From a virus: DNA of 64,000 bases. The notes below the pieces were generated by a model that made no database searches, was not told where the DNA came from, and saw only the letters and a list, made by a program, of their open reading frames with translations. The translations under genes and the position numbers were made by a program. Below are positions 1 through 64,000 of the stretch, in pieces (position 1 is the first letter of the stretch; the number at the start of each line of letters is the position of its first letter). Where the stretch lies: the IMG/VR virus record IMGVR_UViG_3300036859_000816, positions 1 to 64,000 of that record; one strand, given 5' to 3'.

Positions 1-12
1 CACGCTTGCCTC

Positions 13-378
13 CTATCGCAGTAGACCGCCCAGTAAGACACCGAGAGCGACGCCAATGCCGCCGACGGCTATGAGAGTGCCCAACGATGGCGTACTCGAT
101 GCCGAACAGAATTTCAGTCCCTCAGCGGCCGCATCCATTGCCTTGGCATCGACCTTGTAGCCATCCCGAATGGCTTGGCAATTCGGCACGGACGAGGGCG
201 CCGTAGTGTTGATGCAATCGCTGAGCTCTTGCGAGTAACACGGCTGGGCTCGCAAAGCGGCCGCGCCAGAGGTCAGCGCCGTTGGTGACCACGTATGCGG
301 ATCGGCGCCGGGCAGCGCTGCGCCAATACCGAGCGGCTGGGCGTACATCGGTAGATTTGGTGCATAGAGCGCGTACAT
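13..378 (-). CDS. Small tail-anchored membrane protein, Cys-containing (putative virion protein)
   Basis: N-terminal PLGIG motif, four Cys, C-terminal hydrophobic helix LIAVGGIGVALGVLLGGLLR; same architecture as the 37-60 kb proteins. Confidence 0.7.
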   Translation of the reverse strand: MYALYAPNLPMYAQPLGIGAALPGADPHTWSPTALTSGAAALRAQPCYSQELSDCINTTAPSSVPNCQAIRDGYKVDAKAMDAAAEGLKFCSASSTPSLGTLIAVGGIGVALGVLLGGLLR

Positions 379-385
379 GCGCCCA

Positions 386-577
386 TCATGGTACCGATGA
401 GACTGGACCGTCGTCCAATTTTTGGATGGATCCGCCTCGGCGCTTCACCCAGTGCTCTATGGTGGCCAAGGGACGCCCGACCATCCACCGTCCAATCGGT
501 GCAGCCGACCACACATGCTCGCCGCGCACGACGATGGAGAACACCGCGTAAGGCAGTTCAATCCGATACCAGCTCAT
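386..577 (-). CDS. Hypothetical protein
   Basis: Fills the gap in a coupled minus-strand run (4-bp overlap with the upstream ORF). Confidence 0.55.
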   Translation of the reverse strand: MSWYRIELPYAVFSIVVRGEHVWSAAPIGRWMVGRPLATIEHWVKRRGGSIQKLDDGPVSSVP

Positions 578-1101
578 CGCAGACCAATCGGCCGCGGTTC
601 ACCCTCGAAGGCCTGAAGCAAGCAGGGTCCGCGGTAGCCGATCGGCACACCCATGACGTGCTCCGCGATAGCATCGGCAGTCAGCTCGACGGTGTCCGTG
701 TCGCGCTCTTTCCAGCCGCTGCGCCACTTGCGCCATTGTTTGACTTGCTGTGGATCCTCCACATCGAAGCGCCGACGCTCGACACGGTCACCTTGCAAGA
801 CAAACTCGCCCGGATAGCAGAAATCGGTAGCGTGACCGAGCTCGTGGGCGAGCATGGCGCAGACGGTATCGTAGCCGAGCTCGGCTAGTTCGGGCGCGAC
901 CACGATCTCGCTACCGTCCTCGAAACATGCGGCAAAGTGACGCGGCGTATTGTGTACCCAGCGCCGGCAGCGCAGCTGCACACTGCGCACGCGGTCTAGA
1001 CCGGCATCGAGAAATTGCTCACGCACGACCAGGAAGTAGGGCTCGATGATTGCATGAGCCTCCTCGGTCGTGAGATCGGTCTCTGTGTCGGCGCAGCCCA
1101 C
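574..1101 (-). CDS. HExxH zincin-like metallopeptidase-domain protein
   Basis: MLAHELGH motif plus downstream VELTAD (third ligand Glu). Confidence 0.6.
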   Translation of the reverse strand: MGCADTETDLTTEEAHAIIEPYFLVVREQFLDAGLDRVRSVQLRCRRWVHNTPRHFAACFEDGSEIVVAPELAELGYDTVCAMLAHELGHATDFCYPGEFVLQGDRVERRRFDVEDPQQVKQWRKWRSGWKERDTDTVELTADAIAEHVMGVPIGYRGPCLLQAFEGEPRPIGLR

Positions 1102-1108
1102 TCACAGC

Positions 1109-1534
1109 TCAGATTTGCGGACCCGGTTTGCTTTGAATGTGCGCGACCGCGCGTTGAACCTGTTCGCGGCTAATGTAGCCCGCTTCAATGCCACCATGCA
1201 GCGCGCGTTCACATTCCTGTGGCGTCAATCCGACGGGCACAACCATCGCGCAGCGTTGGCAGCCAAGATGCGGTCGCATGATGCCGTGCTGACGATCGTG
1301 TTTCCAACCGGGCGGCTCGCGTTTCATCGAAATGTAGGTGAGCTCTTCCCAGTCGGCTTCGATGCCTCCAGGCATGCCGCAATTGTCGCACGTGAACTCG
1401 ACGAAGAGTCCGCGGCCCGTCTGTTGAAAGCCCGTCTTGGCTTTATGCAGCGCGCCGAGGCCTTCGCTGTCTTCGAAAATTCCACCGAGGGCTGTTTCAT
1501 AATGCTTGACATCTGAGAATGCGTCGTCGCTCAT
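1109..1534 (-). CDS. Zinc-ribbon hypothetical protein
   Basis: CDNC...CQRC pairs; overlapping start/stop with neighbour. Confidence 0.65.
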   Translation of the reverse strand: MSDDAFSDVKHYETALGGIFEDSEGLGALHKAKTGFQQTGRGLFVEFTCDNCGMPGGIEADWEELTYISMKREPPGWKHDRQHGIMRPHLGCQRCAMVVPVGLTPQECERALHGGIEAGYISREQVQRAVAHIQSKPGPQI

Positions 1535-1749
1535 TGGATCTTGTCTCCATCTTCAGCACGCCGACCCATCCGGATCAAGCGATCGAGTTGCGCATGGCAG
1601 GCGGTCGTTGCTTCATACTGTTGGTACAGTGCTCGAATGATGTTACCGCGTAGAATCTTTTTACCGGACGCACCGCGCAACGATGGCGGCGATGCAGGTT
1701 CGAGAGGAAATTCTCGAACCACTTGACCTAGGTCCGGCGCGCTGTCCAT
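1531..1749 (-). CDS. Hypothetical protein
   Basis: Coupled ORF in minus-strand run. Confidence 0.5.
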   Translation of the reverse strand: MDSAPDLGQVVREFPLEPASPPSLRGASGKKILRGNIIRALYQQYEATTACHAQLDRLIRMGRRAEDGDKIQ

Positions 1750-2111
1750 GCCTCAAGGACTCCTGTGGCTCTGCCAACTTTCTCGGTCAATCCGTTGATG
1801 TGTGCGGTGCTCTGTGCAGTATAGGCTGCGAACTCTTCGTCTGTCACGCAACGGCGCAGGCGCTCGTCTAAGGCCTTGAGACTCGCCTTGATTTCTTCCA
1901 GTGTTTTCTCGAGATTTTTGAGCGTCTGGACGTCGTCCCGCACCTTCTGGAAGTCGGCCGTCGGCACCGCGGATTCGGCCACCGACTTTTGGACGGCCGG
2001 CGTGACCGAGCTCTGGATGGCGGGCATGACGACCTTGATCCACGCCAGATATGCGGCGCCCACTAACGTGCCGAGACCGGTCCCAATCAGAGCAAACTGA
2101 CTTATATCCAT
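1728..2111 (-). CDS. N-terminal transmembrane plus coiled-coil protein (holin-like candidate)
   Basis: Hydrophobic N-terminal helix followed by heptad-rich segment. Confidence 0.6.
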   Translation of the reverse strand: MDISQFALIGTGLGTLVGAAYLAWIKVVMPAIQSSVTPAVQKSVAESAVPTADFQKVRDDVQTLKNLEKTLEEIKASLKALDERLRRCVTDEEFAAYTAQSTAHINGLTEKVGRATGVLEAWTARRT

Positions 2112-2114
2112 TGG

Positions 2115-2888
2115 TTACACGTTAGCATGAACACGACCGGCTTCGATAAGACTCGGGTCGAAGTGTCGATACGGTTGCACCGGTACCCACCGTTCGGGTT
2201 CGCGCTCACCCGAGACCACGCGATGGCTGAGTAGACCGAGATAGTGACCCTTGCCGCCGCGGTAGATCATGCGGTCGATCGACATGCCGCCGCTCGCGTG
2301 CGCATGTTCGCGCGTGCAGCGACGATATAGGTAATTGTACACGCTCGTATTCCACAAGCGCGCTCCGTTACGCCGCATCTGCATGCACCAGCGAATGTCT
2401 TCGGCAAGTTTCTGAATCGGAAAATCTAGGCTGTCCTCGGACCACGCCGCGAGCGTTCCGCCAGTCAACGAAACAGCGATTCGATTCTGAAGATTTTCGA
2501 GAAAGAGAAACAGATACTGGTCATCGACGGCGATGAAATGTTGGTGCTTGCCGATGACGTCAGCCTTGTCGGCGTTAGCAACGATCTCAGTCAGGTAGTC
2601 GGCGCTGTACCAGTCATCATCATCGAAACTTGCCCAGTATCCGCCGCCATTGATACGCAGTTCCGTGATGCCGGTATTGCGCGCGTGTGATTGATGCGCG
2701 GCGCTCGTGAGCACACGGTCAGCGGGCAAACGTAGGCGTGCCCACGTGCCCACGGCAGGACCGTTCTCAACGATCCAGAGGCGTTTATCCGGGTGCAGCT
2801 GTCGCTGGAAGTTCTCCAATGTCCGCTGCGCATACTCGGGACGCGAGAAGGGTACAATTACCGTTACATTGCTAGGTCGGCGCTTCAT
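2115..2888 (-). CDS. Glycosyltransferase family 2 (GT-A fold)
   Basis: VTVIVP start, IVENG, ARNTG, FDDDD DxD motif, LAED. Confidence 0.85.
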   Translation of the reverse strand: MKRRPSNVTVIVPFSRPEYAQRTLENFQRQLHPDKRLWIVENGPAVGTWARLRLPADRVLTSAAHQSHARNTGITELRINGGGYWASFDDDDWYSADYLTEIVANADKADVIGKHQHFIAVDDQYLFLFLENLQNRIAVSLTGGTLAAWSEDSLDFPIQKLAEDIRWCMQMRRNGARLWNTSVYNYLYRRCTREHAHASGGMSIDRMIYRGGKGHYLGLLSHRVVSGEREPERWVPVQPYRHFDPSLIEAGRVHANV

Positions 2889-4678
2889 CGTTCGGCAGCG
2901 GCCACCACGCGCTTGATGGCGCGGATCTGTTTATCCTTGCCGGTCGTCCGCGCGAAATTACGAGTCAGTGCCGCGGCGAATGATTCGTCGTGATACGTGA
3001 TGCCGTCGGCCATGTGCGTGCATTCATGTACAGCTGAGGCGTACAACCACATAATGTGTTCCCAATCGGCCAGATCGAACAACTCCGCGTTGGACCGCAT
3101 TGGATCGACATTGTGAAACGGATTCAGTAGGAGCCAGTGTTGTCCTTCTTCGTGCAGGTAGGCTGCCGCGGCATAGGTGTCGAATTGAAAGCCGACACCG
3201 AAGGCTAGGCCTGAACCCAGTTGCATGAGTACAAAGCGACAGAGCTCCGCCCAGAAGCGCGCGAGCTTGCGAATGTTGCGCGTCATCGTTGCCGGATAGA
3301 ATTTCTTGGGAACGTGGAAGCCGTCCACCTCATTGATGACATAGAAGTCGGGTTGCCAAGCCAGCTGCTTGATTGCATTCTCGACCTGCGTACTGCCGGC
3401 CAAGTCAACTCCCGACAGTAAGACTTCCGCCAGTTCGCTACTGACGAGCGCAATGGATTGCTCGGCCTCGCTTTCAGTCGGCAGCATGTTGCGCAGTGCG
3501 GATGTGACCGTGGTCACTTGTTCAACGCTGAGATACTGACGACCAGCATGCGTTCGTTGACCCAACGGTTCGAGCGTTCCTAAAGCATCAGACGCGCTGC
3601 TCACGACATCGCGCTGAAGCTCGGCCTTGAATTTGCCGCTACCGACGAATCGCTCACGAATAATGCCCGCTTTCTTTTTGAGCGCACTCACGACGTCGGC
3701 GGCTAACTCGTTGGAAAAGTCGTCGATCTCCCGTTGCAAAGACCGATCTCGAAATCCATCTCGGTTCGCAGTGAGCAGTTCAATACTCGGACGTCGTAGC
3801 TCGATGATGATTTGTCCGGGTACCGAGCTCGTGACATAGCGACCGAACATGTACAAGCCATTGGCTCGCACGAGCATCGCGCCGCGAAACGGTGCATCGC
3901 GCTTGTTGTAATAAAGCTCTGCTTTGCCGCCAAAGTCTCGCACTGACGCGCCCGTGCTCAGGTCCGCGCGAACAGATTTGCCATTGACGGTGAAGCGTAC
4001 GCTCAAATCGCACTTACCGATAAACGAGAGCGCGGCCGCTTCGTGCGTGGTCTGATCGGCTGGCATCGCGACAGTGAGTAGTGTTCCGGATCGGTAGGAC
4101 GCAGGCTCCACCTCGTATTCGATACCGGCACCGCGCACGATGCGGTCGCGCGTATGAATCGTCCAGGACAACCATGGCAGCACAAGCAGTTCTTTCGCTT
4201 TACCAAATCCGCCGGTCGTCGATCCGCTGACCTTCGTCGTGCCACCGAGGACGAGGAACTTGTTGATGAGCACGTCCTCATCCATGCCGCCGCCATTGTC
4301 TTCGACGCTGATGAGGTAACTACCGTCCGCTTGCTGTTCGGCGGTGCAGTCGATGCGGGACGCGCCGGCATCGACCGCATTCTGGATAGCTTCCCGCCAC
4401 CACTTCTCTTGCCAGTCCTCGTAATCCTTGATGGCGCTCGTAAAGAACTCGCGTCCGATACGGATGCTCCCGAGCGCGTTCCGCTCGTAGCTGTCCCGCA
4501 CTTGCACGGCAATGAGCTTTTCGCCATCCTCGGCGTATCGTTCGCCGATTTGTTCGGCGTGCCCTTCGGCGATGAGTGCCTTGAGCACTCCGTATGCGTC
4601 AGCGTCAGCTGACGCTACATATAGACCGGGTTCAAGATCCCGTGCGTCCGCAAAGCTTTCAATGAACTGCGCTGTCAT
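2885..4678 (-). CDS. GHKL (HATPase/Hsp90-like) ATPase with C-terminal HExxH motif
   Basis: REAIQNAVDAG (N-box), VEDNGGGM (G1), GGFGKA (G2); C-terminal VHECTH...HDESF. Confidence 0.85.
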   Translation of the reverse strand: MTAQFIESFADARDLEPGLYVASADADAYGVLKALIAEGHAEQIGERYAEDGEKLIAVQVRDSYERNALGSIRIGREFFTSAIKDYEDWQEKWWREAIQNAVDAGASRIDCTAEQQADGSYLISVEDNGGGMDEDVLINKFLVLGGTTKVSGSTTGGFGKAKELLVLPWLSWTIHTRDRIVRGAGIEYEVEPASYRSGTLLTVAMPADQTTHEAAALSFIGKCDLSVRFTVNGKSVRADLSTGASVRDFGGKAELYYNKRDAPFRGAMLVRANGLYMFGRYVTSSVPGQIIIELRRPSIELLTANRDGFRDRSLQREIDDFSNELAADVVSALKKKAGIIRERFVGSGKFKAELQRDVVSSASDALGTLEPLGQRTHAGRQYLSVEQVTTVTSALRNMLPTESEAEQSIALVSSELAEVLLSGVDLAGSTQVENAIKQLAWQPDFYVINEVDGFHVPKKFYPATMTRNIRKLARFWAELCRFVLMQLGSGLAFGVGFQFDTYAAAAYLHEEGQHWLLLNPFHNVDPMRSNAELFDLADWEHIMWLYASAVHECTHMADGITYHDESFAAALTRNFARTTGKDKQIRAIKRVVAAAER

Positions 4679-4962
4679 GCGGACTCCAAATCCTCAACCG
4701 TCTCGTTGCGTAACGTGGCCGGCGTAACTTTCCCGTCGCGACGATAAATGCGCCGCGCTGCGCGCATCAACGTCGGCAACTCTGACCAATCAAATGCTTC
4801 TACTTCACCCGCGACCGCCCACATGGCCTCAACTGGAATCTTGCGAATGCCCTTCGGATAAAACTGCATACCATTGGTGATCGCTCCATCAGACCAAAAC
4901 AGCACAGTAAAATTGTCAGCCGTCTTACGCTTAGCGACAATCTCTGCTTGGCGCTCAGTCAC
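4675..4962 (-). CDS. Hypothetical protein
   Basis: Coupled to both neighbours by 4-bp overlaps. Confidence 0.6.
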   Translation of the reverse strand: MTERQAEIVAKRKTADNFTVLFWSDGAITNGMQFYPKGIRKIPVEAMWAVAGEVEAFDWSELPTLMRAARRIYRRDGKVTPATLRNETVEDLESA

Positions 4963-5867
4963 GGCGCCGTACCAGTGAAGACGAAGATGCCGACCGTTTC
5001 AATGGGCTGCCGCGTGCCGTTGTTCGTGCCGAACGTATTCGAAAACGATTGGTCTAGGTCCGGATTGGCAAAGTCCCAGGTATCGTTCGGATCACTGACG
5101 TCCACGTCCACGCGGCGCGCGAAGATCAGCATTTCATCGCCCTCGGCATCGAACCAAAACGGATGGTAGACGGGACCACCGGGAATGCCGCCGTTGAAGT
5201 CGGGCGCGGTCGGACCTTCGACAAATGGAAAGACACCCTGCGTAATGATACCGATCTCGGGAGGTCCGGGTCGCGGCGGTGGCAAGAACGGACCTTGCCA
5301 GAGATTACTACCCGTCACGTTGTCGAAACCTTCGGCACCTAGCGGAATGATGAGCTGTCCACGCAAATGGATGACGCCGTTCGCATTGACAAACACGCTC
5401 GTGCTCGGCTCAGGCTGCTCGTAGGCAATGGTTTGAATAGCGCCCGGAATGACGACACGCCTACTAGCCGGGTCCGCCGGATCGTTGGCTACGCCCAGCT
5501 CGCGGCGGCGTAAGTGGTAGTAGGGCATTTGATCTTTTGGCACGTTCTGGTTGAACGCATCGACGAAATCGCCAATGGACCGCAGGCGCCAGATGATTTG
5601 ATACTGGTACGGCGTCGGGACGAAGTAATCAATGAGCGCCGACGGAATCCAGATCATGACGCGCGCACCGATGGGCACAGGGATCCCCGCTATCAGATTC
5701 GGATCGAATCCCTGCACTCCGAGCTCGGCCTCACGATCGATCGTGCCAGGAAATGCTATCGGAACGCTCGCCGGCTGACCCTGGTAGCGCGCCTCGAAGT
5801 TTGGAAACGGTTTAAGGATCCGTGCCATTCCAAACTGTGCATCGACGAGTACGTTCTGACCTGCCAC
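4959..5867 (-). CDS. Pro/Gly- and beta-rich protein, putative virion (jelly-roll-like) protein
   Basis: Alternating hydrophobic strands, terminal IFVFTG strand like the 50-54 kb proteins; fold is inference. Confidence 0.5.
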   Translation of the reverse strand: MAGQNVLVDAQFGMARILKPFPNFEARYQGQPASVPIAFPGTIDREAELGVQGFDPNLIAGIPVPIGARVMIWIPSALIDYFVPTPYQYQIIWRLRSIGDFVDAFNQNVPKDQMPYYHLRRRELGVANDPADPASRRVVIPGAIQTIAYEQPEPSTSVFVNANGVIHLRGQLIIPLGAEGFDNVTGSNLWQGPFLPPPRPGPPEIGIITQGVFPFVEGPTAPDFNGGIPGGPVYHPFWFDAEGDEMLIFARRVDVDVSDPNDTWDFANPDLDQSFSNTFGTNNGTRQPIETVGIFVFTGTAP

Positions 5868-5881
5868 GTTCTTGTTTTCCT

Positions 5882-6379
5882 TTATTCGCGCGAAGAGCGC
5901 GTCGCACGATACGCTAAGTAAGCGCCGATGACACCGCCGACGACGGCCATCGTTGCGCTCTTGGCTGCCTCTTCACGTTCTGCCGGATTGGCGCTCGGCC
6001 ACAGTTCCTGCGCGCGCCAGCCGTTCCGAGCGGCACCGACGAGAATGAATCCGGCACCCGCTCCCCATGCACCGCCGAGTAACCAACCTGCCGCGAGTCC
6101 CGTGCCGGCCAAAACAAGAGCAACACCCGCGCCGCGGCGCACTGCTGCATCAGGCATCGTTTGCTGCATCATTGGTATGGGTGCGGCGCTCGGTAGCTGA
6201 TCCGTGCTTGTCGGCGCGGTCGGAAGGCTCGATTGCTCAGCGGGTAAGAGCGCTGGAGTCGGCTCAGAGGACGAGGCCCAGGTGACGGGAGTTTCTTCGT
6301 CTGTTTGCCCGAACATGCGAGTCGATAGGGTATCGAAGCCCACAGTTAAAGGCAAAAAATATTGCTTGGAGTCGTACAT
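5882..6379 (-). CDS. Membrane protein with Gly/Ala-rich C-terminal helices
   Basis: Pro/Ser linker then two to three hydrophobic helices and basic tail. Confidence 0.7.
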   Translation of the reverse strand: MYDSKQYFLPLTVGFDTLSTRMFGQTDEETPVTWASSSEPTPALLPAEQSSLPTAPTSTDQLPSAAPIPMMQQTMPDAAVRRGAGVALVLAGTGLAAGWLLGGAWGAGAGFILVGAARNGWRAQELWPSANPAEREEAAKSATMAVVGGVIGAYLAYRATRSSRE

Positions 6380-6399
6380 GGAACCTAGTCTGCCCGCCC

Positions 6400-7024
6400 A
6401 TGACGCCCTTTGCCGTTCGAATCCTCGCGACCCTCTTACAGCTCGCTGTGCCTCGCGTCGAACCCGAGACTGCCGAGCACCGGCTTGCTCGCATGCAGCC
6501 CATCGCTGAGGCTATGGCAGACGTGAGCGCTGAGGTGCGCTGCGTTGATCAGCCTGAGACGTGCCGGGTTCAATGGCCGGGACCACGGCGGGAGCTCGCC
6601 ATCGCCTTCATCGCGATTGGCTATCATGAAAGCGGGTTTGCTCCGTATGTCGGCGAAGATCGCTGCCACGATGGTCCCCAAGGGCGCGCGCTGCGATAAC
6701 GGCCGCGCCCTCGGTTACTGGCAGCTACATCGCAACACGTGCGCGGCTGCCTGGGATTCACCACATGCGCCCGGCAGCTATGCGCGGCTGGTCGTCGAGC
6801 TCCGCTGTGTCGTTCGCGCTTTCTCGTCGGCGCACCGTATATGCAACGAGAACGCTATCGATTGGGCGTATGTGTTCGGCAGATACGGAGGCCGGCAGTG
6901 CGCATGGGTGGGTGGAAAGACTCGAGCATTCACGATGCTGCGCGTCAGCAAGCTCTACGAACGCATGAGTCGCCAACCTGCGTCCGCCTTGCCCACGATT
7001 GAGTATCCCAAAATCAACGACTAG
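6400..7024 (+). pseudogene. Lysozyme-like / lytic transglycosylase gene split by a +1 frameshift
   Basis: Frame 1 has hydrophobic N-terminus and catalytic-type YHESGF; the +1 frame continues KGARCDNGRALGYWQLH; junction at CCCC 6676-6679. Confidence 0.65.
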
Positions 7025-7574
7025 TTCTCTTGACTTGGACCAGAAATTCGCAAGCGTTCAGGCTCGGTTTGCGCAGTCGGCAATGTAGTTCATCGACGAC
7101 CGCGCGCTCATTGTAGTGCTTGGCCACGCCCAGCATGATGCCCTTGGCCAGTGCGCAGAGCGAGCGATGCGACGAATAGAAGACTCGCAAGGTTTCGGCA
7201 TCCACGCTTTCGCAGCGTAACGTCGGAGGGCGCGCTCCTTTGATGCGGGCGCGCACGACCTTGTGCAATATCTGATCGGTGTTCTGAAGCAACTCGAGCG
7301 TGCGCCATTTGCGGTCAATGAGCGCTGGGTACGTCTTCACGAGACCGGGCACAATGTACTGACCGAAGCGTTCGAGCACCGTCTCTACCGGCAGCCGCGC
7401 CATCTCGACGCACGCGCCCACAATTGCTTCGATGTCGCTGTCCGGGTACTCGCGAATAGGCAAGTAGACCGTCGTCGGATCAAGCTCGGCGCGTTGAAGG
7501 GCTAGCTGCCAAGCGTCCACACCCAGCGCGTGTTCGACGAAGCCCTTCAATTCGACGAAAATTATTCCGTGCAC
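7014..7574 (-). CDS. H-NOX (heme NO/O2-binding, HNOB) domain protein
   Basis: MHGIIF start, YPD, FG, proximal His in ILHKVV, PP, YSSHR (YxSxR) heme motif, GIMLGVAKHY. Confidence 0.88.
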   Translation of the reverse strand: MHGIIFVELKGFVEHALGVDAWQLALQRAELDPTTVYLPIREYPDSDIEAIVGACVEMARLPVETVLERFGQYIVPGLVKTYPALIDRKWRTLELLQNTDQILHKVVRARIKGARPPTLRCESVDAETLRVFYSSHRSLCALAKGIMLGVAKHYNERAVVDELHCRLRKPSLNACEFLVQVKRTSR

Positions 7575-7619
7575 TTCAAGACGTTAGGGTTCATATGCGC
7601 GCGACGTCAAAAAAACGTC

Positions 7620-7648
7620 TTGCTGTGCAAGCCGGCGCATGCTGCAAT
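7620..7648 (+). promoter_or_regulatory. Sigma70-type promoter for the tRNA
   Basis: TTGCTG - 17 bp - TGCAAT with TGn extension, upstream A-tract, 6 bp before the tRNA 5' end. Confidence 0.55.
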
Positions 7649-7654
7649 ATCGCC

Positions 7655-7729
7655 AGCGGCCTAGAACTCTGGGAGTTCGACAGGCTCATACCCTGTTTTA
7701 GGTCGGTTCGATTCCGACGGCCGCTTCCA
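7655..7729 (+). tRNA. tRNA with CAT anticodon (Met or Ile2)
   Basis: Cloverleaf: AGCGGCC/GGCCGCT acceptor, GAAC/GTTC D stem, ACAGG-CTCATAC-CCTGT anticodon arm, GTCGG-TTCGATT-CCGAC T arm, encoded CCA. Confidence 0.92.
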
Positions 7730-7745
7730 TTCAGGCGATTCGACT

Positions 7746-8099
7746 TTACAGCACCGAACGGCGGTTCCTCAAACGGACCTCGGACGGTTGCTCGGCGCTT
7801 TGTTTGAACTGCTGGCAGCCCTGATGCTCGAACGTGAGAAGCCCGCATCGGTGCGATTTCGGATTCGTGCAGACGAGCCAATCAGCGGACAACTTCTCAT
7901 CCTCCAGCCACTTTGCGTAACGGCAGCCGCACGAACAGTCCGGATACATCTGCTTTGGGTCCGACCAACGCACGACCGTGCCACCGTAGTCGGAGTAGTC
8001 CTTGGACAAAACTTTCAGCATCTTCAGTAATCGCCCGTGCTCGCCCTTCTGTTTGGTGCGCTTCATCAAGTTCGGTCTGTATTTGGCTTTAGCTGGCAT
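7746..8099 (-). CDS. DUF3027-like Cys-rich protein
   Basis: DCSCGC...DWLVCTNPKS...GLLTFEHQGC pattern. Confidence 0.55.
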   Translation of the reverse strand: MPAKAKYRPNLMKRTKQKGEHGRLLKMLKVLSKDYSDYGGTVVRWSDPKQMYPDCSCGCRYAKWLEDEKLSADWLVCTNPKSHRCGLLTFEHQGCQQFKQSAEQPSEVRLRNRRSVL

Positions 8100-8445: not shown

Positions 8446-8451
8446 CGCTTC

Positions 8452-8820: not shown

Positions 8821-8821
8821 G

Positions 8822-9417: not shown

Positions 9418-9421
9418 ATCG

Positions 9422-12813: not shown

Positions 12814-12864
12814 CGCCTTGCTTCGGATGGCCGCCCCGAAGCGTCGAGCGCCGCGCCGAGCTTG

Positions 12865-13140: not shown

Positions 13141-13240
13141 TATTTCTCCGTTCATTTCAGCTGAAACGATGCCATGTGCGTGCCGCCCTGCGCGAGCACG
13201 AACCCAAATACGCAAAAATCGGTCGTTTCGCTTAAGTTTG

Positions 13241-14544: not shown

Positions 14545-14560
14545 GTTTCTCCTTTTGTCT

Positions 14561-44086: not shown

Positions 44087-44088
44087 CC

Positions 44089-44993: not shown

Positions 44994-44996
44994 ACC

Positions 44997-55551: not shown

Positions 55552-56192
55552 TGCTGCCGATCATAGCGGTATCGGGATTAGGTGCGACGCAGGCGGATCA
55601 ATCTTCTGTGCGCTGCCGAACGCGAGCGCGCCCATGGGGTGCAACCCAATCATCCGAGCCTAGCTGTCAACCGCGGCCGCAACCCTGGTCGTGGATGCTC
55701 CCACCAGCGCCACCCGCTATCTCTACACCACCGAAGGTAGCCGTTGTCCGTGCTCCGGTTGTAGTCGCCAAGCCGCCGCCGGTCGTAAAAGCAAAGCCTG
55801 CACCCGTTGTAACAGTCAAGCCTGCTCCGACCGTAGTAAAATGCGAACCGGGAATGAAAGACTGCGCATGCAGAGCAGATAGCACGTGCGACCGCGGTTC
55901 GCGTTGTGTGGCGCACACGTGTGTGCCATGCAAACTGGGTACGCATAAATGCCAATGCGATGACAATGGAAAATGTCCGGGGCGCACAAGCAAAACCGGG
56001 AAGCTCTATTGCAAGTCGGGCATCTGCAAAAAGAGAGTGCACCACGGCATCTGGCCATTTTCTTCAACGAGCTACGAAGGACTCGGTGAAGAGCCGGCCG
56101 CACCGCTTTGGGCTTGGGCTGGTATCATCGGTTTGACGGGATTCATCTTTTGGTCGACGCTCCGTCCGCCGCGCCTACCGATAGGACGCTGA
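55551..56192 (+). CDS. Cys-rich tail-anchored protein
   Basis: Two six-Cys repeats between two GLG motifs, C-terminal TM. Confidence 0.75.
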   Translation: MLPIIAVSGLGATQADQSSVRCRTRARPWGATQSSEPSCQPRPQPWSWMLPPAPPAISTPPKVAVVRAPVVVAKPPPVVKAKPAPVVTVKPAPTVVKCEPGMKDCACRADSTCDRGSRCVAHTCVPCKLGTHKCQCDDNGKCPGRTSKTGKLYCKSGICKKRVHHGIWPFSSTSYEGLGEEPAAPLWAWAGIIGLTGFIFWSTLRPPRLPIGR

Positions 56193-56193
56193 T

Positions 56194-56436
56194 ATGGCTG
56201 AACCGCAACTGGTCGTCAGTCCCCAGGACATCGAGAAGGTACTGAAAGGGGCCAAAGCGATCGGTAACCCGATGGCCATCGTTCAACGCTTTGCCGGCCT
56301 GGGCGAAGCGGAACAGCAGGCGGGTATACCGGGATGGGCTTGGTTGTCGCTGGCCGTGGGCGTCGGTGTCGTAGTGGGCATGCAACTACGGCCCGCAGTG
56401 GATGATTTTTTGCAGAACCGCGGCTTCCGCCGCTAA
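56194..56436 (+). CDS. Small tail-anchored protein
   Basis: FAGLGE then TM. Confidence 0.7.
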   Translation: MAEPQLVVSPQDIEKVLKGAKAIGNPMAIVQRFAGLGEAEQQAGIPGWAWLSLAVGVGVVVGMQLRPAVDDFLQNRGFRR

Positions 56437-56448
56437 ACTGGAGCGGCA

Positions 56449-57948
56449 ATGGCGTACAACCACATGTCGGCATATCAGGAAGGCATTCTCGGCGCTTTAA
56501 TGCGTCAGCCCGGCTCCGTGCACGAAGGCAGCCTGGGCGTGCTCATGCGTCAGCCCGGGTCTGTACACGAGGGCAGTCTGGGCATTCTGATGCGTCAGCC
56601 GGGCTCCGTGCACGAAGGCAGCCTTGGCGTGCTCATGCGCCAGCCTGGGTCTGTACACGAGGGTAGTTTGGGCGCACTCATGCGTCAGCCGGGATCCGTT
56701 CACGAAGGCAGCTTAGGCGTGACGCCGCGCCGTCGCATTTGGACAGCCGCATCACCGCTCTTGCAAGGGATCGGTCTGGCGCCTGCACCAATGACCGCTC
56801 CGGGAACGTCCGTCATGATGGCTCCGCGCGTTGCGGGTATGCCCGCGTACGCGCGCGCGGCGGCGGAACGAGCTCGCGCCCGCGCGGAATGTCAAGCGCG
56901 CTGCTATGCGCTGCCGACAGCAAAGCGCCCGGGCTGTCTGTCGGGTTGTTCCCGATCCTATCCCGTGAGCGGCCTCGGAGCTCTGATGGCGCCGCCTGGT
57001 GCGGCCGTCATGATGCGGCCACCAACGCGGGCAATGCCCGCATCGGCGCGTGCTGCCATGGAGCGCGCCCGGGATCGCGCGGAATGCCGCTCGCGCTGCT
57101 ATGCGCTGCCGTCGGCGTCGCGTACGCCGTGTCTATCGACGTGTTTAGCAACGTACCCCTTGACCGGTCTCGGAGCGGATGGAGATGCAGCCGCAGCGGC
57201 CGCACGCGAAGCCGCCGAACACGCAACGACCCGTGTGTCGTCTGAACAGGCGGCTTCAGCTGCAACGATCAAAGCTTCGCAGGCAGCGGCTCAGGCTGCT
57301 GCGGCGACGCATCCGATCGAACGAGCGGCGGCTGAGAGTGCAGCGTCCGCGGCAGCAGCCGCTGCTGCACAACATACCCAACAAGCGCAAGCGGCTCGGG
57401 CTGCTGAGATCAGTGCCGTCGCTAGAATGCGGATGATTGCGGCATCGCCACATCGTCCGCACTATCCGCCCTGGGCCGCAGCGGCAGCCATTGTGCCGCC
57501 TGGTCAGCGCGTACGCAGGCGCGCTACGCCGTGGTTTGGACAGTACGGTCGGGCAGCGAAAACCATTGGCAAGGGATTCTCGAAGGTTCAGCACTACGCG
57601 GAAACGCCCGAGCGATACATACAAAAGGTGCCCGTTGTGGGCACTGCGGCGAAAGCGGCGAAGACTGTTATCGAGGCTCCCATCAAAGCCATTACGTCAC
57701 TTTTCGGTCTGGGCGCGGCGCCGCAAACGGTTGCCGCCAAAATGGCTTCCGCGACGGCACGCGCGGTTTGTCTCAAGAACTGTGAAAAGCGTCCGGGAGC
57801 CGCATTCGCTCCATGCGTGAGTAGCTGCTTGAATCAGTATCCCTTGCATGGTCTGGGCGCCGAAACACCGGCCGGGGATACGAGCTGGCTCTGGATCGTG
57901 GGAGGCGTGGCACTGCTCGGCGCAGTCGTAGTAATGGCGTCGCGGTGA
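56449..57948 (+). CDS. Repeat-built polyprotein with C-terminal TM
   Basis: Five 15-aa repeats, three CX3CX10CX3C modules, four GLG motifs. Confidence 0.8.
   Translation: MAYNHMSAYQEGILGALMRQPGSVHEGSLGVLMRQPGSVHEGSLGILMRQPGSVHEGSLGVLMRQPGSVHEGSLGALMRQPGSVHEGSLGVTPRRRIWTAASPLLQGIGLAPAPMTAPGTSVMMAPRVAGMPAYARAAAERARARAECQARCYALPTAKRPGCLSGCSRSYPVSGLGALMAPPGAAVMMRPPTRAMPASARAAMERARDRAECRSRCYALPSASRTPCLSTCLATYPLTGLGADGDAAAAAAREAAEHATTRVSSEQAASAATIKASQAAAQAAAATHPIERAAAESAASAAAAAAAQHTQQAQAARAAEISAVARMRMIAASPHRPHYPPWAAAAAIVPPGQRVRRRATPWFGQYGRAAKTIGKGFSKVQHYAETPERYIQKVPVVGTAAKAAKTVIEAPIKAITSLFGLGAAPQTVAAKMASATARAVCLKNCEKRPGAAFAPCVSSCLNQYPLHGLGAETPAGDTSWLWIVGGVALLGAVVVMASR
56494..56718 (+). repeat. Five tandem 45-bp coding repeats
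   Basis: xLMRQPGSVHEGSLG five times with synonymous variation. Confidence 0.95.
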
Positions 57949-58544
57949 ATCCAACCGGCATCGACGGATTTTTGCATCGGCTCGGCGAAGTCCTCGGAAC
58001 ACTGCAAGCCGCGCCGGGTCCCGTCCATCGGCGCATCTGGATCGAGCTCGGTCCCTGGCTTCGAACACTGACGGTTGAGGCCGCGCCGAAGTGGCTCGGG
58101 CGGCTCGCCGCCGAGTTGCCATGTCATGTTGCAGCGATCGAACATGATGGCGCGCGCAAGTGTCCTCGGCATGCCGTCGCGCTCTGCATGCTCTGCGGTG
58201 GCGCAACGTGCCTCGAGCACGCGTTCATCGATATCCACGGCGAATCGATCTGTTACGTATGTGCGACGAAAGCGTTACACGGTCATGTGCACCACGCGCC
58301 GCCGCCAAAGGTACCGCGAGACGTGCAGTCACCGCGCGATGTCGCCTGGGCTTGCCGGCAGCTCAAAGTAGACAGCGACGTGACCGCGGCCGAGTTACAT
58401 ACTGCGCACCGCAAGTTAAGCGCACACTGGCATCCGGACCGCTATCGTACTGAGCAACAGAAGGCAAACGCAGAGCGACGCTTCAAGGACGTTCAACGAG
58501 CTTTCGATATCTTGCAGAAGCATCTGCAACGTAGTGCTGCATGA
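57945..58544 (+). CDS. J-domain (DnaJ-like) protein with B-box-like zinc finger
   Basis: HRKLSAHWHPDR...AERRFKDVQRAFDIL; CMLCGGATCLEH...CYVC. Confidence 0.88.
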   Translation: MNPTGIDGFLHRLGEVLGTLQAAPGPVHRRIWIELGPWLRTLTVEAAPKWLGRLAAELPCHVAAIEHDGARKCPRHAVALCMLCGGATCLEHAFIDIHGESICYVCATKALHGHVHHAPPPKVPRDVQSPRDVAWACRQLKVDSDVTAAELHTAHRKLSAHWHPDRYRTEQQKANAERRFKDVQRAFDILQKHLQRSAA

Positions 58545-58816: not shown

Positions 58817-58858
58817 AAATTGGACAATTGCGGCGCGTTGGCGGCAAAATCTGTGGTT

Positions 58859-59662
58859 GTGACTGATCGACTAGCTGCTACCGCTCTCCGCATACTCGCT
58901 CCGCGAGCCGTCGTGTTTGGATTCGGCAATCCGGACAGCTTGCAGAATGTCATCACGACCGACCTGCCGAACGGCGCCGAGTGCTTCGTTATCGAGGACC
59001 GGACGCTGTATCGGCTGAACAAAACGCTGACGGTTACACCGCCCGGCGGAATTCAACCGGTCGGTGGTCCGGGACGCTGGGTTCCCGATTTCGGTCCAAC
59101 CGGCCCAACGGGACCCACCGGAACGAGCGGAAGTACGGGACCGACCGGAGTCGGCACGACGGGTGCGACCGGTACAAGCGGCGCAGCAACCTTCGGACGC
59201 GCCTCGATGCAATTCGATCCGAGTGTGTTCGGAACCGATGGTGTGTTCGACGTTGCCGCACAAAATAATTGGATAGGAGCCGATAGCACGCAGGTTGCCT
59301 ACGTTGTTCAAACGACACTGAGTGCCGATTGGTCACTGAATGGAACTACTGGCGTGCTGACGTACTCCGGCGTGGATGCATTCTACGCGTTCGTCGGATC
59401 CGTCAATCTGAACTCTCAGGATGGCGTTGCGCGTAATATCGAGGTCGCGTTTACCAAAAATGGTGCATTCATCGGTTCGCCAACCGCTATCTTGAATGCT
59501 ACCGGCGGCTTCACCAATGCGCTCAACTTCATGCCGTATAATCCCACTGCGATGTTCGCCGTATCCGCGACCGATACGATTCAAATGATCGCGCGTAACG
59601 TCGATGCGAACGCAAACCTCGAATACAACCGCCTGAGCGCCATTGGCTGGCGCGTCGGTTAA
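58859..59662 (+). CDS. Collagen-like fibre/spike protein with beta-rich head
   Basis: GPT/GAT Gly-X-Thr triplets then C1q/BclA-like beta-rich C-terminus; start uncertain. Confidence 0.7.
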   Translation: MTDRLAATALRILAPRAVVFGFGNPDSLQNVITTDLPNGAECFVIEDRTLYRLNKTLTVTPPGGIQPVGGPGRWVPDFGPTGPTGPTGTSGSTGPTGVGTTGATGTSGAATFGRASMQFDPSVFGTDGVFDVAAQNNWIGADSTQVAYVVQTTLSADWSLNGTTGVLTYSGVDAFYAFVGSVNLNSQDGVARNIEVAFTKNGAFIGSPTAILNATGGFTNALNFMPYNPTAMFAVSATDTIQMIARNVDANANLEYNRLSAIGWRVG

Positions 59663-61310: not shown

Positions 61311-61588
61311 GCCGCAAGTGGAAGCCTGAAGTCATCATCGGCGGCGGTGAGCCTAAGCCGCAAGATCCCAATCCGATGACGAGCGACTTCGGCCATGCCG
61401 TCGATCAGTTCGTTGCCGGTTGGTACAAGCGCCACCCACAGCTCGACCAGGATGCAGCGCTGATTGTCCTAATGCAATACGTGGCCGGTTTAGCCGTAAC
61501 CCGCGGCTGTCCGGAAATCGATTACGTACGCTGCTCAACGGACCTCTATCAGATGGAGGCGCAGGCACGGAACAAAGACGGCGCATGA
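61307..61588 (+). CDS. Hypothetical protein
   Basis: Coupled on both sides. Confidence 0.6.
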   Translation: MSRKWKPEVIIGGGEPKPQDPNPMTSDFGHAVDQFVAGWYKRHPQLDQDAALIVLMQYVAGLAVTRGCPEIDYVRCSTDLYQMEAQARNKDGA

Positions 61589-61959
61589 GCGAAGCGTTCA
61601 TCGAATTGTGCGAACTGATTCGCCAGGCTGGTCTCGAGCTGCGACTGTACGGGCGTCCCGTCACCAAACAGCAGGTGCTCGAGTACGCACAACAGCATTC
61701 AATGATGAGGATAGCGACGATGAGCAACTCGAATACGGACACAAATTGGAAATTTTCGGATGAGCTCGACGGATTGAAATTGGGCACGGCCGAAGAAGAG
61801 CGGCACCGGGCGAAGCTCTGGATGGACACGGCTGCGCAGCATGGGCGTAACGAAGAGTACTGGCGCAATCGCTGTCGCAAAGCCGAAGAAGTCATCAACG
61901 AATTCGTCAAACAGGCCGGCAAAGCGGGCTATACGATCAGCGCTAAAAGCGATGACTAG
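61585..61959 (+). CDS. Hypothetical protein, paralog of 13241-13528
   Basis: WMDTAAQHGRNEEYWR. Confidence 0.7.
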   Translation: MSEAFIELCELIRQAGLELRLYGRPVTKQQVLEYAQQHSMMRIATMSNSNTDTNWKFSDELDGLKLGTAEEERHRAKLWMDTAAQHGRNEEYWRNRCRKAEEVINEFVKQAGKAGYTISAKSDD

Positions 61960-63292
61960 CGAGCGTATGGATGAAACGGCCGCGCGAGCACCCGTCGAAG
62001 GGCAGCTCGAACGCGAACGACCGTACTTTGCACCGGGTCAAACAGCGGAGCACCTATTCAGTGTGCTCTATCAAGGCGAATACGAGACGCTCGGGGACGG
62101 TACCGCTATTGCCGTCCGCCGGCATGCGACGGCCTTGGCAGCAAGTGGTATTCCCGTACAGCTGCGGAGCTTTTCGAACATCGTCGTCAATCGCTACGGT
62201 GTGCGCGAGCCGGCGCACCTCGGCATTCCGGCACCCGTCGAAGCTGAAGTCGGTGCGCTGCGCAAGACATCGGTTCAAGCGCTCATTCCTGTCATCAAGC
62301 ATGCGGTCATCGCCAGCGCGGAACACGCGCGCAACATCCTAATTCCTCATGGCGCCATCGGTACCGATACGATGGCAACCGTCGAGCTGCGGCGCTCGAT
62401 TTGCCAAAATACGATCTTGTACACGGTCTGGGAGCGCAGCCGCATCGATGAAACGTTGGCGCGTGAACTTGACCGCGCGGCGCAGCTCTGGGTGCCGTGT
62501 GTACAGAACGCGCAAATGTTGGAGTCCAGCGGCATCGCTAAACACAAGATTCACGTCGTGCCGCACCCGTATCGGCCTGATGATGATCTCACCAAACTGC
62601 TCGATCGCAAACCGACGGACTGGCGTCTGTTCTATTCGATCGGCCGCTGGGAACCGCGCAAGGCTTACGCGGAGCTAATTACAGCGTTTCTGCGTGCGTT
62701 TACGCCGAGCGACAAGGTCATGTTGACGATCAAGTACTCGGGCAATGGCAATTGGCAAGGCTACCCGACGCCAGCACAGGCTTTATACATGGCTCTCGAT
62801 TCGACCGTCAGGAAACATTGGACGGAAGAGCAAGCACGCCAACGTATCCGGTTCATCGACAAGCACCTCAGTGCTTCAGGAATCATTGAACTGCATTTCC
62901 GCAATAACATTTACGTCTCGTGTTCGCATGGCGAAGCGTGGAACTTCGGCGCATTTGACGCGATACAAGCCGGCAACTCTCTCGTGTACGTGCCATGGGG
63001 CGGCGTAGTGGATTACGCTTCACCGAACGACACCAGAGTGCCGTTACGCGGCATGCAGCCAGTACATGCCAGTTATGGATGGGCCGAAAGCGAATGGGCA
63101 GGATTTGAAATCGACGACTTGGCGCTCGCTCTGCGCTCCACTCCAGTGCGCAGCGCGTACGGGCGGCCGCTGCATTTTAGTCACTTCAGCGCGCCGGTAG
63201 TTGGCCGACAAATGCGCGATCTTGTGCTCCAGCTCGCCGACGAACGAGCGCCAGCTGCAGCTGCGTACTATCGAGGAAAGGTCGATGGCTAA
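61952..63292 (+). CDS. Glycosyltransferase family 4-like (GT-B)
   Basis: YTVWE, WVPC, FYSIGRWEPRK, YVSCSHGEAWN. Confidence 0.88.
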   Translation: MTSERMDETAARAPVEGQLERERPYFAPGQTAEHLFSVLYQGEYETLGDGTAIAVRRHATALAASGIPVQLRSFSNIVVNRYGVREPAHLGIPAPVEAEVGALRKTSVQALIPVIKHAVIASAEHARNILIPHGAIGTDTMATVELRRSICQNTILYTVWERSRIDETLARELDRAAQLWVPCVQNAQMLESSGIAKHKIHVVPHPYRPDDDLTKLLDRKPTDWRLFYSIGRWEPRKAYAELITAFLRAFTPSDKVMLTIKYSGNGNWQGYPTPAQALYMALDSTVRKHWTEEQARQRIRFIDKHLSASGIIELHFRNNIYVSCSHGEAWNFGAFDAIQAGNSLVYVPWGGVVDYASPNDTRVPLRGMQPVHASYGWAESEWAGFEIDDLALALRSTPVRSAYGRPLHFSHFSAPVVGRQMRDLVLQLADERAPAAAAYYRGKVDG

Positions 63293-64000
63293 TCTACTTT
63301 ACGAAACCTGCGCACACTGTGCGGAACAGCGTGCACATTTCGATATCAAAGCGTTGCACTGTTCGTGGTGTCGCGGCACGGGATTTATTCTGAAGTCGTA
63401 TGTGTGCAATGTATGTGGCGACGCCGTACGTCTGGACATGTACGGCGAGCTGGGTCTGCCTGATTTGAAGATTACAGGCAGCTATGGTTCGATGTACTTA
63501 AACGATTACCATACCTATTTCTTCGCACTGTGCGAGCGCTGCCTGCGCAATCTGTTCGAGCACATGGAAGTTCCGCCGGAAGTTCGCGACGTACACGACG
63601 GAGACGTCTTGTACAAAGGAGATCGAGAGACGTACGTTCGGATGTTGTGGCTGCGCACTGGCGCAGAGCAGCGCAAGTTGAAGCTTACGCAAGGCTTATG
63701 CACATACACCGAATTCTGCCGCAATGAAGCCCACTGGCGCGTATTTTACTCGGCGTCAGTGAGCGACGAAGCGCTGTGCGACTCACACAAGTCGAGCGTG
63801 GACCATTGCGCGAATGCGACAGTTGTGCCCGCAGAGCCGTTGCAACATGTACCGGTCGACGTGAAAGATCAAACGGAAGAGCAACGGTGGCTCGTTGCAT
63901 CGGAGTGGCTACGAGCGCAGCCCAAGCAAGCATGGCAGTACATGCCTGAGTGTCTCAAGCCACTAACTAACGCTCCAGATGCGACATCGACGTGGTGGTT
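63285..64000 (+). CDS. Cys-rich hypothetical protein, truncated by the window end (not in ORF track)
   Basis: Translated by hand from ATG 63285: CAHC, CSWC, CNVC, GSYGS...LCERCL; no stop before 64000. Confidence 0.7.
   Translation, partial: MANLLYETCAHCAEQRAHFDIKALHCSWCRGTGFILKSYVCNVCGDAVRLDMYGELGLPDLKITGSYGSMYLNDYHTYFFALCERCLRNLFEHMEVPPEVRDVHDGDVLYKGDRETYVRMLWLRTGAEQRKLKLTQGLCTYTEFCRNEAHWRVFYSASVSDEALCDSHKSSVDHCANATVVPAEPLQHVPVDVKDQTEEQRWLVASEWLRAQPKQAWQYMPECLKPLTNAPDATSTWW

Follow-up and report, generated by a model that had tools for sequence, protein, structure and literature searches.

Large prokaryotic virus genomes are generally assumed to require the terminase and portal machine of tailed phages, and a long viral DNA in which this machine cannot be recognised therefore raises the question of how its particle is built and how its genome is enclosed. 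We address this question for the IMG/VR virus record IMGVR_UViG_3300036859_000816, of which bases 1-64000 (hereafter the window) form the left half of a contig of 131,132 bp (G000) with shared coordinates. An earlier note, made from the window alone, had described an unusually large tailless, membrane-containing virus with replication genes of tailed-phage type, and its interpretation is partly supported by the analysis of the whole contig and of related records. We consider, with a probability of roughly 0.6, that the element is a tailless, membrane-containing virus with a jelly-roll shell. The window would then cover the left half of a genome that is about 127 kb long, all but complete and derived from an uncultured bacterial virus, a member of a widespread clade with terminal-repeat records of 112-179 kb.

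Genome completeness and the search for a packaging machine

The record of G000 is classed as linear and 85% complete, and its G+C content lies between 55 and 64% all along. A comparison of the contig with itself, which bears on the circularity raised in the earlier note, revealed that its ends overlap: positions 9-4365 and 126786-131132 align in the same orientation with 80.4% identity over 4393 bp (blastn). The left contig end (1-4365), copied at the right end, marks the full turn of a genome of about 126.8 kb, and we read the overlap as an assembly that ran once round a circle of this size and then into a co-occurring strain variant. The genes of the overlap are single-copy in three complete relatives used for comparison, G001 (179,401 bp), G003 (143,727 bp) and G007 (125,036 bp), all of which have assembly-type terminal repeats. 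Given the overlapping ends and these single-copy genes, we take the genome to be probably complete, with a size of about 126.8 kb, which goes beyond the lineage of at least 64 kb that had been proposed from the window. The figure of 85% is unreliable for this clade, since G007, whose terminal repeat is 127 bp long, obtains a CheckV completeness of 80% at its 125,036 bp. The possibility that structural genes are hidden in an unseen 15% of the genome was thus rejected on account of both the overlap and the unreliable estimate. Terminal repeats are present in the records of seven relatives, which range from 111,584 to 179,401 bp. G007 has homologues for only 50 of the 198 G000 genes and was rejected as a reference for close collinearity; what it bears out is the core block described below and the single-copy end genes, not full collinearity.

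Tailed-phage hallmarks were sought over this whole contig. PHROGs scans covered 171 open reading frames (ORFs; 10+10+10+30+33+38+40), with ORFs shorter than 60 amino acids (aa) excluded, three ORFs left out (63201-64133, 83950-84402 and 103855-104592) and 25 of 35 families listed for one batch, while Pfam was run on the 20 largest ORFs, ten core proteins and the left arm. No terminase, portal, major head, tail tube, sheath or baseplate family was among the PHROGs matches listed for the 171 ORFs, and no terminase, portal, head or tail-tube family of Pfam was found in the 20 largest ORFs of the contig. Six-frame searches with TerL_ATPase, Phage_portal (of the portal families in Pfam, this one alone was searched), Phage_capsid and FtsK_SpoIIIE gave 0/5 records each, G000 included, and Terminase_6N gave 0/15 relatives. 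The search for an HK97 fold rests on profiles and on one folded protein, the 251-aa shell candidate discussed below. The lack of terminase, portal and HK97 capsid genes that the earlier note reported for 64 kb thus extends to the matches listed for the rest of the 131-kb contig, where genes for a terminase, portal, HK97 capsid or tail could not be recognised and tail-type matches are weak only; such genes in the flanks had been named in the note as a refuting finding.

A packaging ATPase of the A32 or FtsK/HerA type, the other kind of motor considered in that note, was not found by FtsK_SpoIIIE or by scans for Walker A motifs. The canonical motif occurs in G000 only in DnaB and in one methylase, where it is probably there by chance, and a looser scan adds only an SNF2 helicase. 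As a control, the canonical scan detects gp40, the P-loop structural protein of the cultured membrane phage SSIP-1. A stricter heuristic that combined Walker A and Walker B missed even DnaB and SSIP-1 gp40, and being uninformative it was not used. The SNF2-type helicase (94230-96449, outside the window) is the sole NTPase besides replication proteins that is kept in G001, G003 and G007. It can be speculated, as a long shot, that such an SNF2-type DNA translocase acts as an alternative packaging motor.

These searches bear directly on the alternative that the element is a tailed phage in disguise, with terminase, portal, HK97-fold capsid and tail genes that have diverged beyond the reach of these profiles, and the following results favour it at the expense of a tailless virus. 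The negatives of Terminase_6N are weak, because a control with this model found the terminase in only two of five known tailed phages (T5 and G) and missed it in phiKZ, N4 and crAss001. Among the PHROGs matches, a Gly-rich stretch in a membrane protein (46028-47716) is tape-measure-like (2.2e-6), tail-fibre or tail-collar matches of 6.2e-6 to 3.2e-4 occur among 30 scanned ORFs, and two weak matches lie outside the window, one to a 'lytic tail protein' (4.5e-4) and a faint one to the tail protein phrog_1346 (0.0095) in the ORF 82910-83968, of which no stretch passes alone. Some relatives hold AAA-type P-loop proteins of about 390-400 aa that are absent from G000 (G003, 93868-95070; G007, 72944-74107), a point against the tailless reading. 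The phage-typical replication and recombination genes would fit a tailed phage as well, as would the clusters of the shell protein in the ESM Atlas, which carry the label Uroviricota wherever they are labelled. This label is probably an automatic one, and since automatic tools assign the tailed-phage phylum and under-rate completeness, the clade is probably misfiled in current virome surveys; no published description of such a clade was found in the main texts searched. Against a tailed phage stands the lack of any spare P-loop protein that could serve as a terminase in a seemingly complete genome, and PHROGs holds very divergent terminases, none of which was among the matches listed for the 171 ORFs. 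Moreover, the most conserved protein is a predicted jelly roll of 251 aa rather than an HK97 fold, and two thirds of the block around it consist of membrane proteins, unlike the head and tail modules of tailed phages. We therefore regard a divergent tailed phage as very unlikely.

The shell candidate and the proposed particle block

The core of the clade is a block on the plus strand at about 30.5-66 kb, which is common to G000, G001, G003 and G007, the replication module lying outside it. Within this block the gene at 50493-51248 encodes a protein of 251 aa that is the most conserved of the clade. It has 658 metagenomic homologues at E<=1e-3, the best 120 of which are 70-100% identical and located on contigs of up to 137,959 bp, and clustering at 50% identity divides the family into 114 groups, among them shorter variants of about 200 aa. 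No Pfam or PHROGs match was obtained for this protein, 54 members of its family gave no PHROGs family, and a tblastn search of cultured phages returned one chance match (E=3).

Given the lack of sequence relatives among known families, we turned to its predicted structure. With an alignment of 54 diverse sequences, AlphaFold2 gave a model with a predicted local distance difference test (pLDDT) of 82.2 and a predicted template modelling score (pTM) of 0.81, in which eight strands form a sandwich, supplemented by one helix and two inserted loops; the model had improved after distant clusters joined the alignment. When compared with 48,161 chains by VIA-align, the model was closest to SPV1 (6oj0_T; Z 8.2, root-mean-square deviation 3.7, 135 residues aligned), followed by P23-77 VP17 (Z 7.3), STIV A223 (Z 6.5), HCIV-1 (Z 6.3) and HHIV-2 (Z 6.0), while spikes and turrets were represented by the HFTV1 turret (Z 6.2) and PRD1 P5 (Z 4.9). 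Foldseek against the PDB also placed SPV1 first (E 0.036, probability 0.95), then many jelly-roll capsid proteins, and returned double jelly-roll proteins as weak partial matches only (PBCV-1, E 0.1). Against BFVD, the two leading viral rows had E-values of 0.002 and 0.0044 at probabilities of 1.00 and 0.99, and SPV1 VP4 took rank 33. A feature search of the ESM Atlas gave the families of PRD1 P2 and P3 as the nearest named clusters (0.75-0.77), a lead only according to the tool. The earlier note had listed several beta-rich capsid candidates; one of them, this protein, is predicted to be a jelly roll, with shell proteins of membrane-containing viruses as its top matches, rather than one of the other folds that the note had named as refuting its reading.

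Self-association was predicted as well. Three copies of the 251-aa protein modelled together gave a median of 0.79 against 0.00 for the best control, on a scale whose mark 20 of 30 paired and 1 of 23 single-chain solved structures attained; that calibration used two copies and the tool's own alignments, and three copies were used here. The runs agree in at least 79% of the contacts, with a partner pLDDT of at least 78. According to the contact list, one end copy uses one face, the other end copy the opposite face and the middle copy both, and in our reading the copies are predicted to line up head to tail in an open arc, which would suit a lattice or a ring with more than three subunits, and not in a closed trimer. 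Taken together, the model and its contacts make the 251-aa protein a candidate for the major shell protein, with a single jelly-roll fold.

Several results weigh against this assignment and the particle that is built on it. The shell model obtained from a shallow alignment of 38 close homologues reached a pLDDT of only 50, profile searches of the protein against PDB sequences returned nothing real, and every Foldseek E-value, in the PDB as in BFVD, is above 0.001. According to the tool's own note on VIA-align, models that lack a clear relative also typically reach a best Z of 7-8, and non-viral jelly rolls follow closely, namely nucleoplasmin (Z 6.4) and the endospore appendage Ena (Z 5.1-5.5). 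Also, profile comparison revealed no similarity of the soluble proteins of 322 and 269 aa beside the shell gene to each other or to the shell protein, nor of a neighbour of 205 aa to the shell protein. Finally, the virus is known from genes and predicted structure, which limits the reading as a whole.

The genes around the shell candidate are arranged in a constant manner. The order of the genes for an Arg-rich protein, the 251-aa protein and the proteins of 322 and 269 aa is kept in 19, 21, 20 and 20, respectively, of 21 IMG/VR relatives. The Arg-rich repeat protein (48464-50365, plus strand), noted earlier as a core protein, is real: it contains 21% Arg, its densest 100 residues are 55% Arg+Lys, and behind this part come two membrane helices; the tail is acidic and Gly-rich. 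In 19 of 19 relatives with an Arg-rich homologue a basic block (39-60% Arg+Lys) is present, always just upstream of the shell gene. Homologues are present in G001 and G007, and blastp at E<=1e-5 gave none in G003. Its sequence makes it a candidate for a DNA-condensing core protein.

The two soluble conserved proteins of 322 aa (52839-53807) and 269 aa (53807-54616) adjoin the shell gene on the plus strand and are, on the basis of synteny, candidates for second shell or penton proteins. For the 322-aa protein, nothing real was found in a profile search against PDB sequences, and the ESM Atlas gave unnamed clusters only. The conserved soluble protein of 205 aa (44376-44993, plus strand), beta-rich by eye, is a candidate minor shell or vertex protein. 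Three paralogous jelly rolls within the block were considered, an idea that the profile comparison above leaves unsupported.

Most of the other genes of the block encode membrane proteins. A hydrophobic 19-mer (Kyte-Doolittle mean of at least 1.5) is present in 29 of the 93 ORFs of the window, so that the roughly 20 membrane proteins counted previously are borne out, and a membrane segment occurs in 16 of 25 proteins at 37.9-60.2 kb versus 27 of 169 elsewhere. In 13 of these 16 the segment is at the very C-terminus, as in tail-anchored proteins. Several small membrane proteins are among the genes shared with the complete relatives. By sequence reading and hydrophobicity, they form a run of mostly tail-anchored membrane proteins with Gly-Leu-Gly motifs at 37946-48351, with weak peptidoglycan-binding matches (Pfam) at 41418-42602, and a further group of membrane-anchored proteins with the same motif at 54754-57948, both on the plus strand. 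The block contains 30 Gly-Leu-Gly motifs, as compared with 4.9 +/- 2.1 (maximum 13) in 1000 shuffles. In the 499-aa membrane-anchored protein at 56449-57948, which carries four of them, the translation opens with a tandem repeat of about 15 aa, counted at five to six near-identical copies, which corresponds to a DNA repeat at 56476-56721 with 86% identity.

The head of this virion block is a gene for a transglutaminase-like, papain-fold enzyme (37416-37961, plus strand; Pfam Transglut_core, 8.8e-8), which is kept in G001, G003 and G007 and is, judging by its family, a candidate maturation protease. Upstream of it lies a block of three proteins of 397, 174 and 828 aa (30515-34715, plus strand) without a Pfam or PHROGs family. 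The 397- and 828-aa proteins are kept in G001, G003 and G007, and the middle one of 174 aa was matched in G001 only. The 828-aa protein, which had no tblastn match in cultured phages, has a long charged middle that is probably coiled-coil, and it is our guess that it serves as a scaffold or size ruler.

Towards its right side the block contains a DnaJ-domain protein that is conserved in the clade (57945-58544; Pfam), a protein with collagen-like Gly-X-Y repeats and a beta-rich C-terminal domain (58820-59662), which is by sequence reading a candidate receptor-binding spike and probably the source of the weak tail-fibre and tail-collar matches, and a conserved glycosyltransferase (61841-63292), with a second one at 64416-65486 just outside the window; the three within the window are on the plus strand. 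A stretch of 280 bp at the start of the fibre gene (58842-59122) recurs inverted, with 76% identity, at 116734-117013 of G000, and three ORFs at 103855-106531 match a fibre-like gene of G007. Both observations suggest a family of exchangeable fibre genes. Another departure from a constant order is found between the shell gene and its 322-aa neighbour, where an endonuclease of the HNH homing type with three repeated HNH-type stretches is inserted (51305-52690, plus strand; phrog_3377, 2.4e-55). Homologues at this position are missing from all 21 relatives, which gives the gene the look of a homing endonuclease inserted recently.

From these parts a course of assembly can be proposed. The particle module would occupy about 30.5-60 kb of the plus strand and would use no head, portal, terminase or tail of tailed phages. 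The single jelly-roll protein of 251 aa would form the outer shell through head-to-tail ring assembly, joined by its two conserved soluble neighbours (322 and 269 aa), and about 16 small membrane proteins, 13 of them tail-anchored, would be placed in a lipid layer beneath the shell. DNA would be condensed by the membrane-anchored Arg-rich protein, and the transglutaminase-like cysteine enzyme may cut proteins at the recurring Gly-Leu-Gly motif. The collagen-like fibre may bind the receptor, entry may proceed by membrane-borne peptidoglycan-binding and lytic proteins, and the DnaJ-domain protein and the glycosyltransferases would belong to the same module. Since no packaging NTPase was found, and since the architecture of SPV1 suggests the same, it appears most likely that the shell builds around a pre-condensed core of nucleoprotein and membrane, instead of DNA being pumped into a preformed shell. 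We infer the internal membrane from gene content, and also infer the role of the Arg-rich protein, the motor-free assembly and the proteolytic maturation. The fuller proposal, in which a widespread, undescribed clade of bacterial viruses of 112-179 kb combines an SPV1-like particle, a protamine-like, membrane-anchored DNA condenser, motor-free assembly and maturation at Gly-Leu-Gly by a protease of transglutaminase fold, is tentative, and we would put it at somewhat below even odds.

The same gene content can be arranged in another way. The element may be a virus with an enveloped, pleomorphic or spindle-like particle, in which the jelly roll is a nucleocapsid, spike or matrix protein and the membrane proteins are in an outer envelope. 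The many membrane proteins, the candidate Arg-rich nucleoprotein and the failure to find a packaging motor would suit such a particle, and jelly rolls also act as spikes and turrets, as the matches to PRD1 P5 (Z 4.9) and the HFTV1 turret (Z 6.2) illustrate. Yet the clade's most conserved gene, by a wide margin, is the one for the jelly-roll protein. This protein is predicted to associate into head-to-tail arcs and matches shell proteins best, not spikes, and the endolysin and transglycosylases of the contig suggest a lytic release. We therefore consider such a particle unlikely and prefer an internal membrane beneath a jelly-roll shell.

Replication, accessory genes and host

The genes to the left of the particle block gave the locus its tailed-phage appearance, and the set named in the earlier note (YqaJ, RecT, clamp, initiator, primase, DnaB, RuvC, ThyX, MazG, DUF3310 and ParB) was recovered in full with PHROGs and Pfam, MazG only weakly. 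A replication and recombination module spans 18686-28071 on the plus strand and consists, according to PHROGs, of a RecE/YqaJ-like exonuclease (18686-19669; phrog_434, 5.5e-47), a clamp (19666-20763; 8.7e-36), RecT (20782-21876; 1.6e-52), an initiator (22056-23003; 3.5e-12), a primase (23123-24184; 3.3e-11), a methylase, DnaB (25546-26598; 7.9e-32) and a second methylase. Iteron-like 12-nt repeats, CCGAAGCAAA, are located in two clusters within and just after the initiator gene (22471-22547 and 23012-23061), each of which ends in an inverted repeat. The module would thus replicate the genome by means of the initiator and its iterons, DnaB, the primase and the clamp, together with recombination of RecET type. 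In the distant complete relative G003, the exonuclease, RecT, the clamp, the primase and DnaB all lack a detectable homologue, and for this reason the tailed-phage-like replication genes are best seen, from their distribution, as an exchangeable module and not as a defining trait of the clade.

Further to the left, an arm of nucleotide-metabolism and accessory genes (13-18475, minus strand) contains ThyX, a nucleotide kinase, RuvC, DUF3310, a weak MazG, a haem-NO-binding domain and a GHKL ATPase. The families were found by Pfam and PHROGs in batch mode, which places a family in the arm without tying it to a single ORF; the matches include ThyX (Thy1; 2.1e-40), DUF3310 (6.9e-19), RuvC (1.5e-10) and MazG (3e-4, below the Pfam cut-off). 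Two accessory genes are unusual for a virus, namely one ORF with the haem-NO-binding domain HNOB (1.7e-34) and another that matches the cysteine dioxygenase family (5.4e-31). The GHKL-type ATPase (HATPase_c_3, 2.6e-7) lies in the overlapping ends of the contig (2885-4678 and 129652-131052) and is present in G001 and G007, not in G003. The sole tRNA is a tRNA-Met (CAT) at 7655-7729 on the plus strand.

The second half of the contig encodes, besides the SNF2 helicase, an endolysin, glycosyltransferases, a membrane enzyme of the sulfatase family and a collagen-repeat protein. Lysin-type matches outside the window include an 'internal virion protein with endolysin domain' (3e-7), and transglycosylases are also among the matches there. 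A protein of 707 aa with a Cas12f1-like TNB domain (Pfam 6.2e-6; PHROGs transposase 4e-11) is encoded in the region 97753-102999 of G000. Its Cas12f/TnpB-like gene adjoins two internally repeated DNA stretches, 97753-98298 and 99145-100827, which are probably CRISPR-like arrays.

A ParB-like protein is encoded at 29185-29994 on the plus strand (phrog_4715, 1.8e-32 among 30 ORFs scanned; the ORF was assigned from its translation), and outside the window a tyrosine integrase is found at 79378-80502 (phrog_1, 3e-44), which has no homologue in G001, G003 or G007. The earlier note had suggested that the genome might be kept as a plasmid prophage, with ParB, iterons and no integrase seen. ParB and the iterons stand, the supposed lack of an integrase does not hold beyond the window, and this integrase weakens the idea; no ParA-type P-loop protein was seen in the Walker A scans of G000. 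From their families, ParB, the iterons and the initiator would fit plasmid-like maintenance, and the integrase would fit integration. Endolysin, transglycosylases and the weak peptidoglycan-binding matches point to a bacterial host and a lytic exit, and DnaB together with a sigma factor also points towards a bacterial host.

Among 185,579 species-representative genomes, six loci of the clade were found, all on contigs of metagenome-assembled genomes (MAGs). The MAG labels are Pirellulales (2), Pseudomonadales, Pseudomonadota, Gemmatimonadota and Methanomicrobiales, and thus disagree across four bacterial lineages and one archaeal lineage. Given such loci, it can be asked whether the element is a virus at all, or a large plasmid-like or integrative element in which a jelly-roll subunit and membrane proteins, encoded by the conserved block, make up a structure of the cell envelope or surface. 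ParB, the initiator with its iterons, the integrase and the Cas12f/TnpB-like gene would be at home in such an element, jelly-roll pilus or appendage proteins are among the structural matches (Ena, Z 5.1-5.5), and the virus reading rests on genes and not on virions, all six loci being on MAG contigs. Nevertheless, no conjugation or secretion ATPase was found, as the P-loop scans give only DnaB and SNF2, and the endolysin and lysis-type genes are present. In the relatives, an Arg-rich protein of DNA-binding type is fused to membrane helices beside the shell gene, there is a likeness between the transglutaminase-like protein and a virion protein of SSIP-1, a cultured membrane phage, and inconsistent taxon labels are what is expected of mis-binned free elements. 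A non-viral element is in our view quite improbable, and a virus remains the better description of the clade.

Comparison with known membrane-containing viruses

The PRD1-type viruses are likewise tailless and have a membrane inside, lytic enzymes in the virion and a collagen-like spike, features that the gene content would predict for the particle proposed here; in PRD1, the collagen-like motif is carried by P5. The genome of PRD1 is linear and 15 kb long (PMC6260650). The model of the 251-aa protein differs in having one jelly roll, not two, and no ATPase of the A32/FtsK type was found in G000.

The sphaerolipovirus-type viruses (the Thermus phage P23-77 with VP16/VP17; the haloarchaeal SH1, HHIV-2 and HCIV-1) have genomes of 17-31 kb and a packaging ATPase of the FtsK/HerA type as a hallmark. 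They place single jelly-roll shell proteins over an internal membrane, an arrangement that is predicted here from genes, and P23-77 VP17 was the second-best structural match (Z 7.3). Of the two single jelly-roll shell proteins of these viruses, a counterpart of one is predicted in G000. They differ in their hallmark ATPase, since none of the FtsK/HerA type was detected in G000 (Walker A scans; FtsK_SpoIIIE 0/5).

The closest bacterial virus is SSIP-1, a tailless, membrane-containing phage that is said to encode two types of shell protein (PMC6356626) and is listed with 44 kb, 100 nm and T=49 (PMC6260650). The transglutaminase-like protein at 37416-37961 shows similarity to gp34, a virion protein of SSIP-1 (E 4e-8 in a database of 352 ORFs), as do the transglutaminase-like proteins of two relatives (E 1.6e-8 and 6e-4), and in G000 and SSIP-1 alike the transglutaminase-like gene is upstream of the shell genes. 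The top BFVD row of the shell candidate, I1ZBH9 (211 aa), and a later one, I1ZBI0 (256 aa), equal in length the adjacent SSIP-1 structural proteins gp46 and gp47, and may, judging from these lengths, be the same proteins. Kinship at the sequence level was sought further with hmmsearch and hhalign, which found no link beyond gp34, and profiles of four conserved soluble proteins gave nothing in SSIP-1 (best E 0.042). SSIP-1 also differs in its Walker A structural protein gp40, which has no counterpart in the clade, in a structural block without an Arg-rich protein and without enrichment of Gly-Leu-Gly, and in a genome that is three times smaller.

These differences in size give the clade its wider meaning. 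Bacterial phages with jelly-roll capsids are tabulated in a review with genomes of 9-44 kb (PMC6260650), and a jelly-roll clade of 112-179 kb without a detectable packaging NTPase would break this limit; the genome of G000 is about three times that of the largest one tabulated (SSIP-1, 44 kb). If the reading is true, the clade is several times larger than the tailless prokaryotic viruses named in the literature consulted on them, it would represent the first bacterial case of motor-free assembly for a genome of more than 100 kb, and it may be a lineage of high rank. It would also make testable how a genome of more than 100 kb is enclosed without a motor, and its shell family, with the 658 homologues reported above, is abundant in metagenomes.

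In build, the closest published virus appears to be SPV1 (Sulfolobus polyhedral virus 1, Portogloboviridae), a virus of hyperthermophilic archaea with a circular genome of about 20 kb and without replication genes of its own (PMC8459092). Its shell consists of VP4 hexamers, with a single jelly roll, and VP10 pentamers, beneath which are sub-capsomer membrane proteins, a lipid layer on the inside and a core of nucleoprotein; none of its nine assigned genes is a packaging ATPase, two are a glycosyltransferase and a methyltransferase, and it bears CRISPR arrays (PMC8459092). Of the structures compared, that of SPV1 matched the 251-aa protein best (Z 8.2; top PDB row of Foldseek). The gene content of G000 likewise offers a candidate Arg-rich core protein, many membrane proteins, glycosyltransferases and no packaging NTPase that could be found, and its repeat arrays beside the Cas12f/TnpB-like gene, outside the window, are a further likeness. 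There are however clear differences: G000 is about 127 kb, has its own replication module and encodes peptidoglycan-directed enzymes that point to a bacterial host, and the link to SPV1 is one of fold and build only, at a middling Z and with no sequence similarity. We contend that, on this comparison, the clade would extend to bacteria an architecture known from one archaeal virus of 20 kb.

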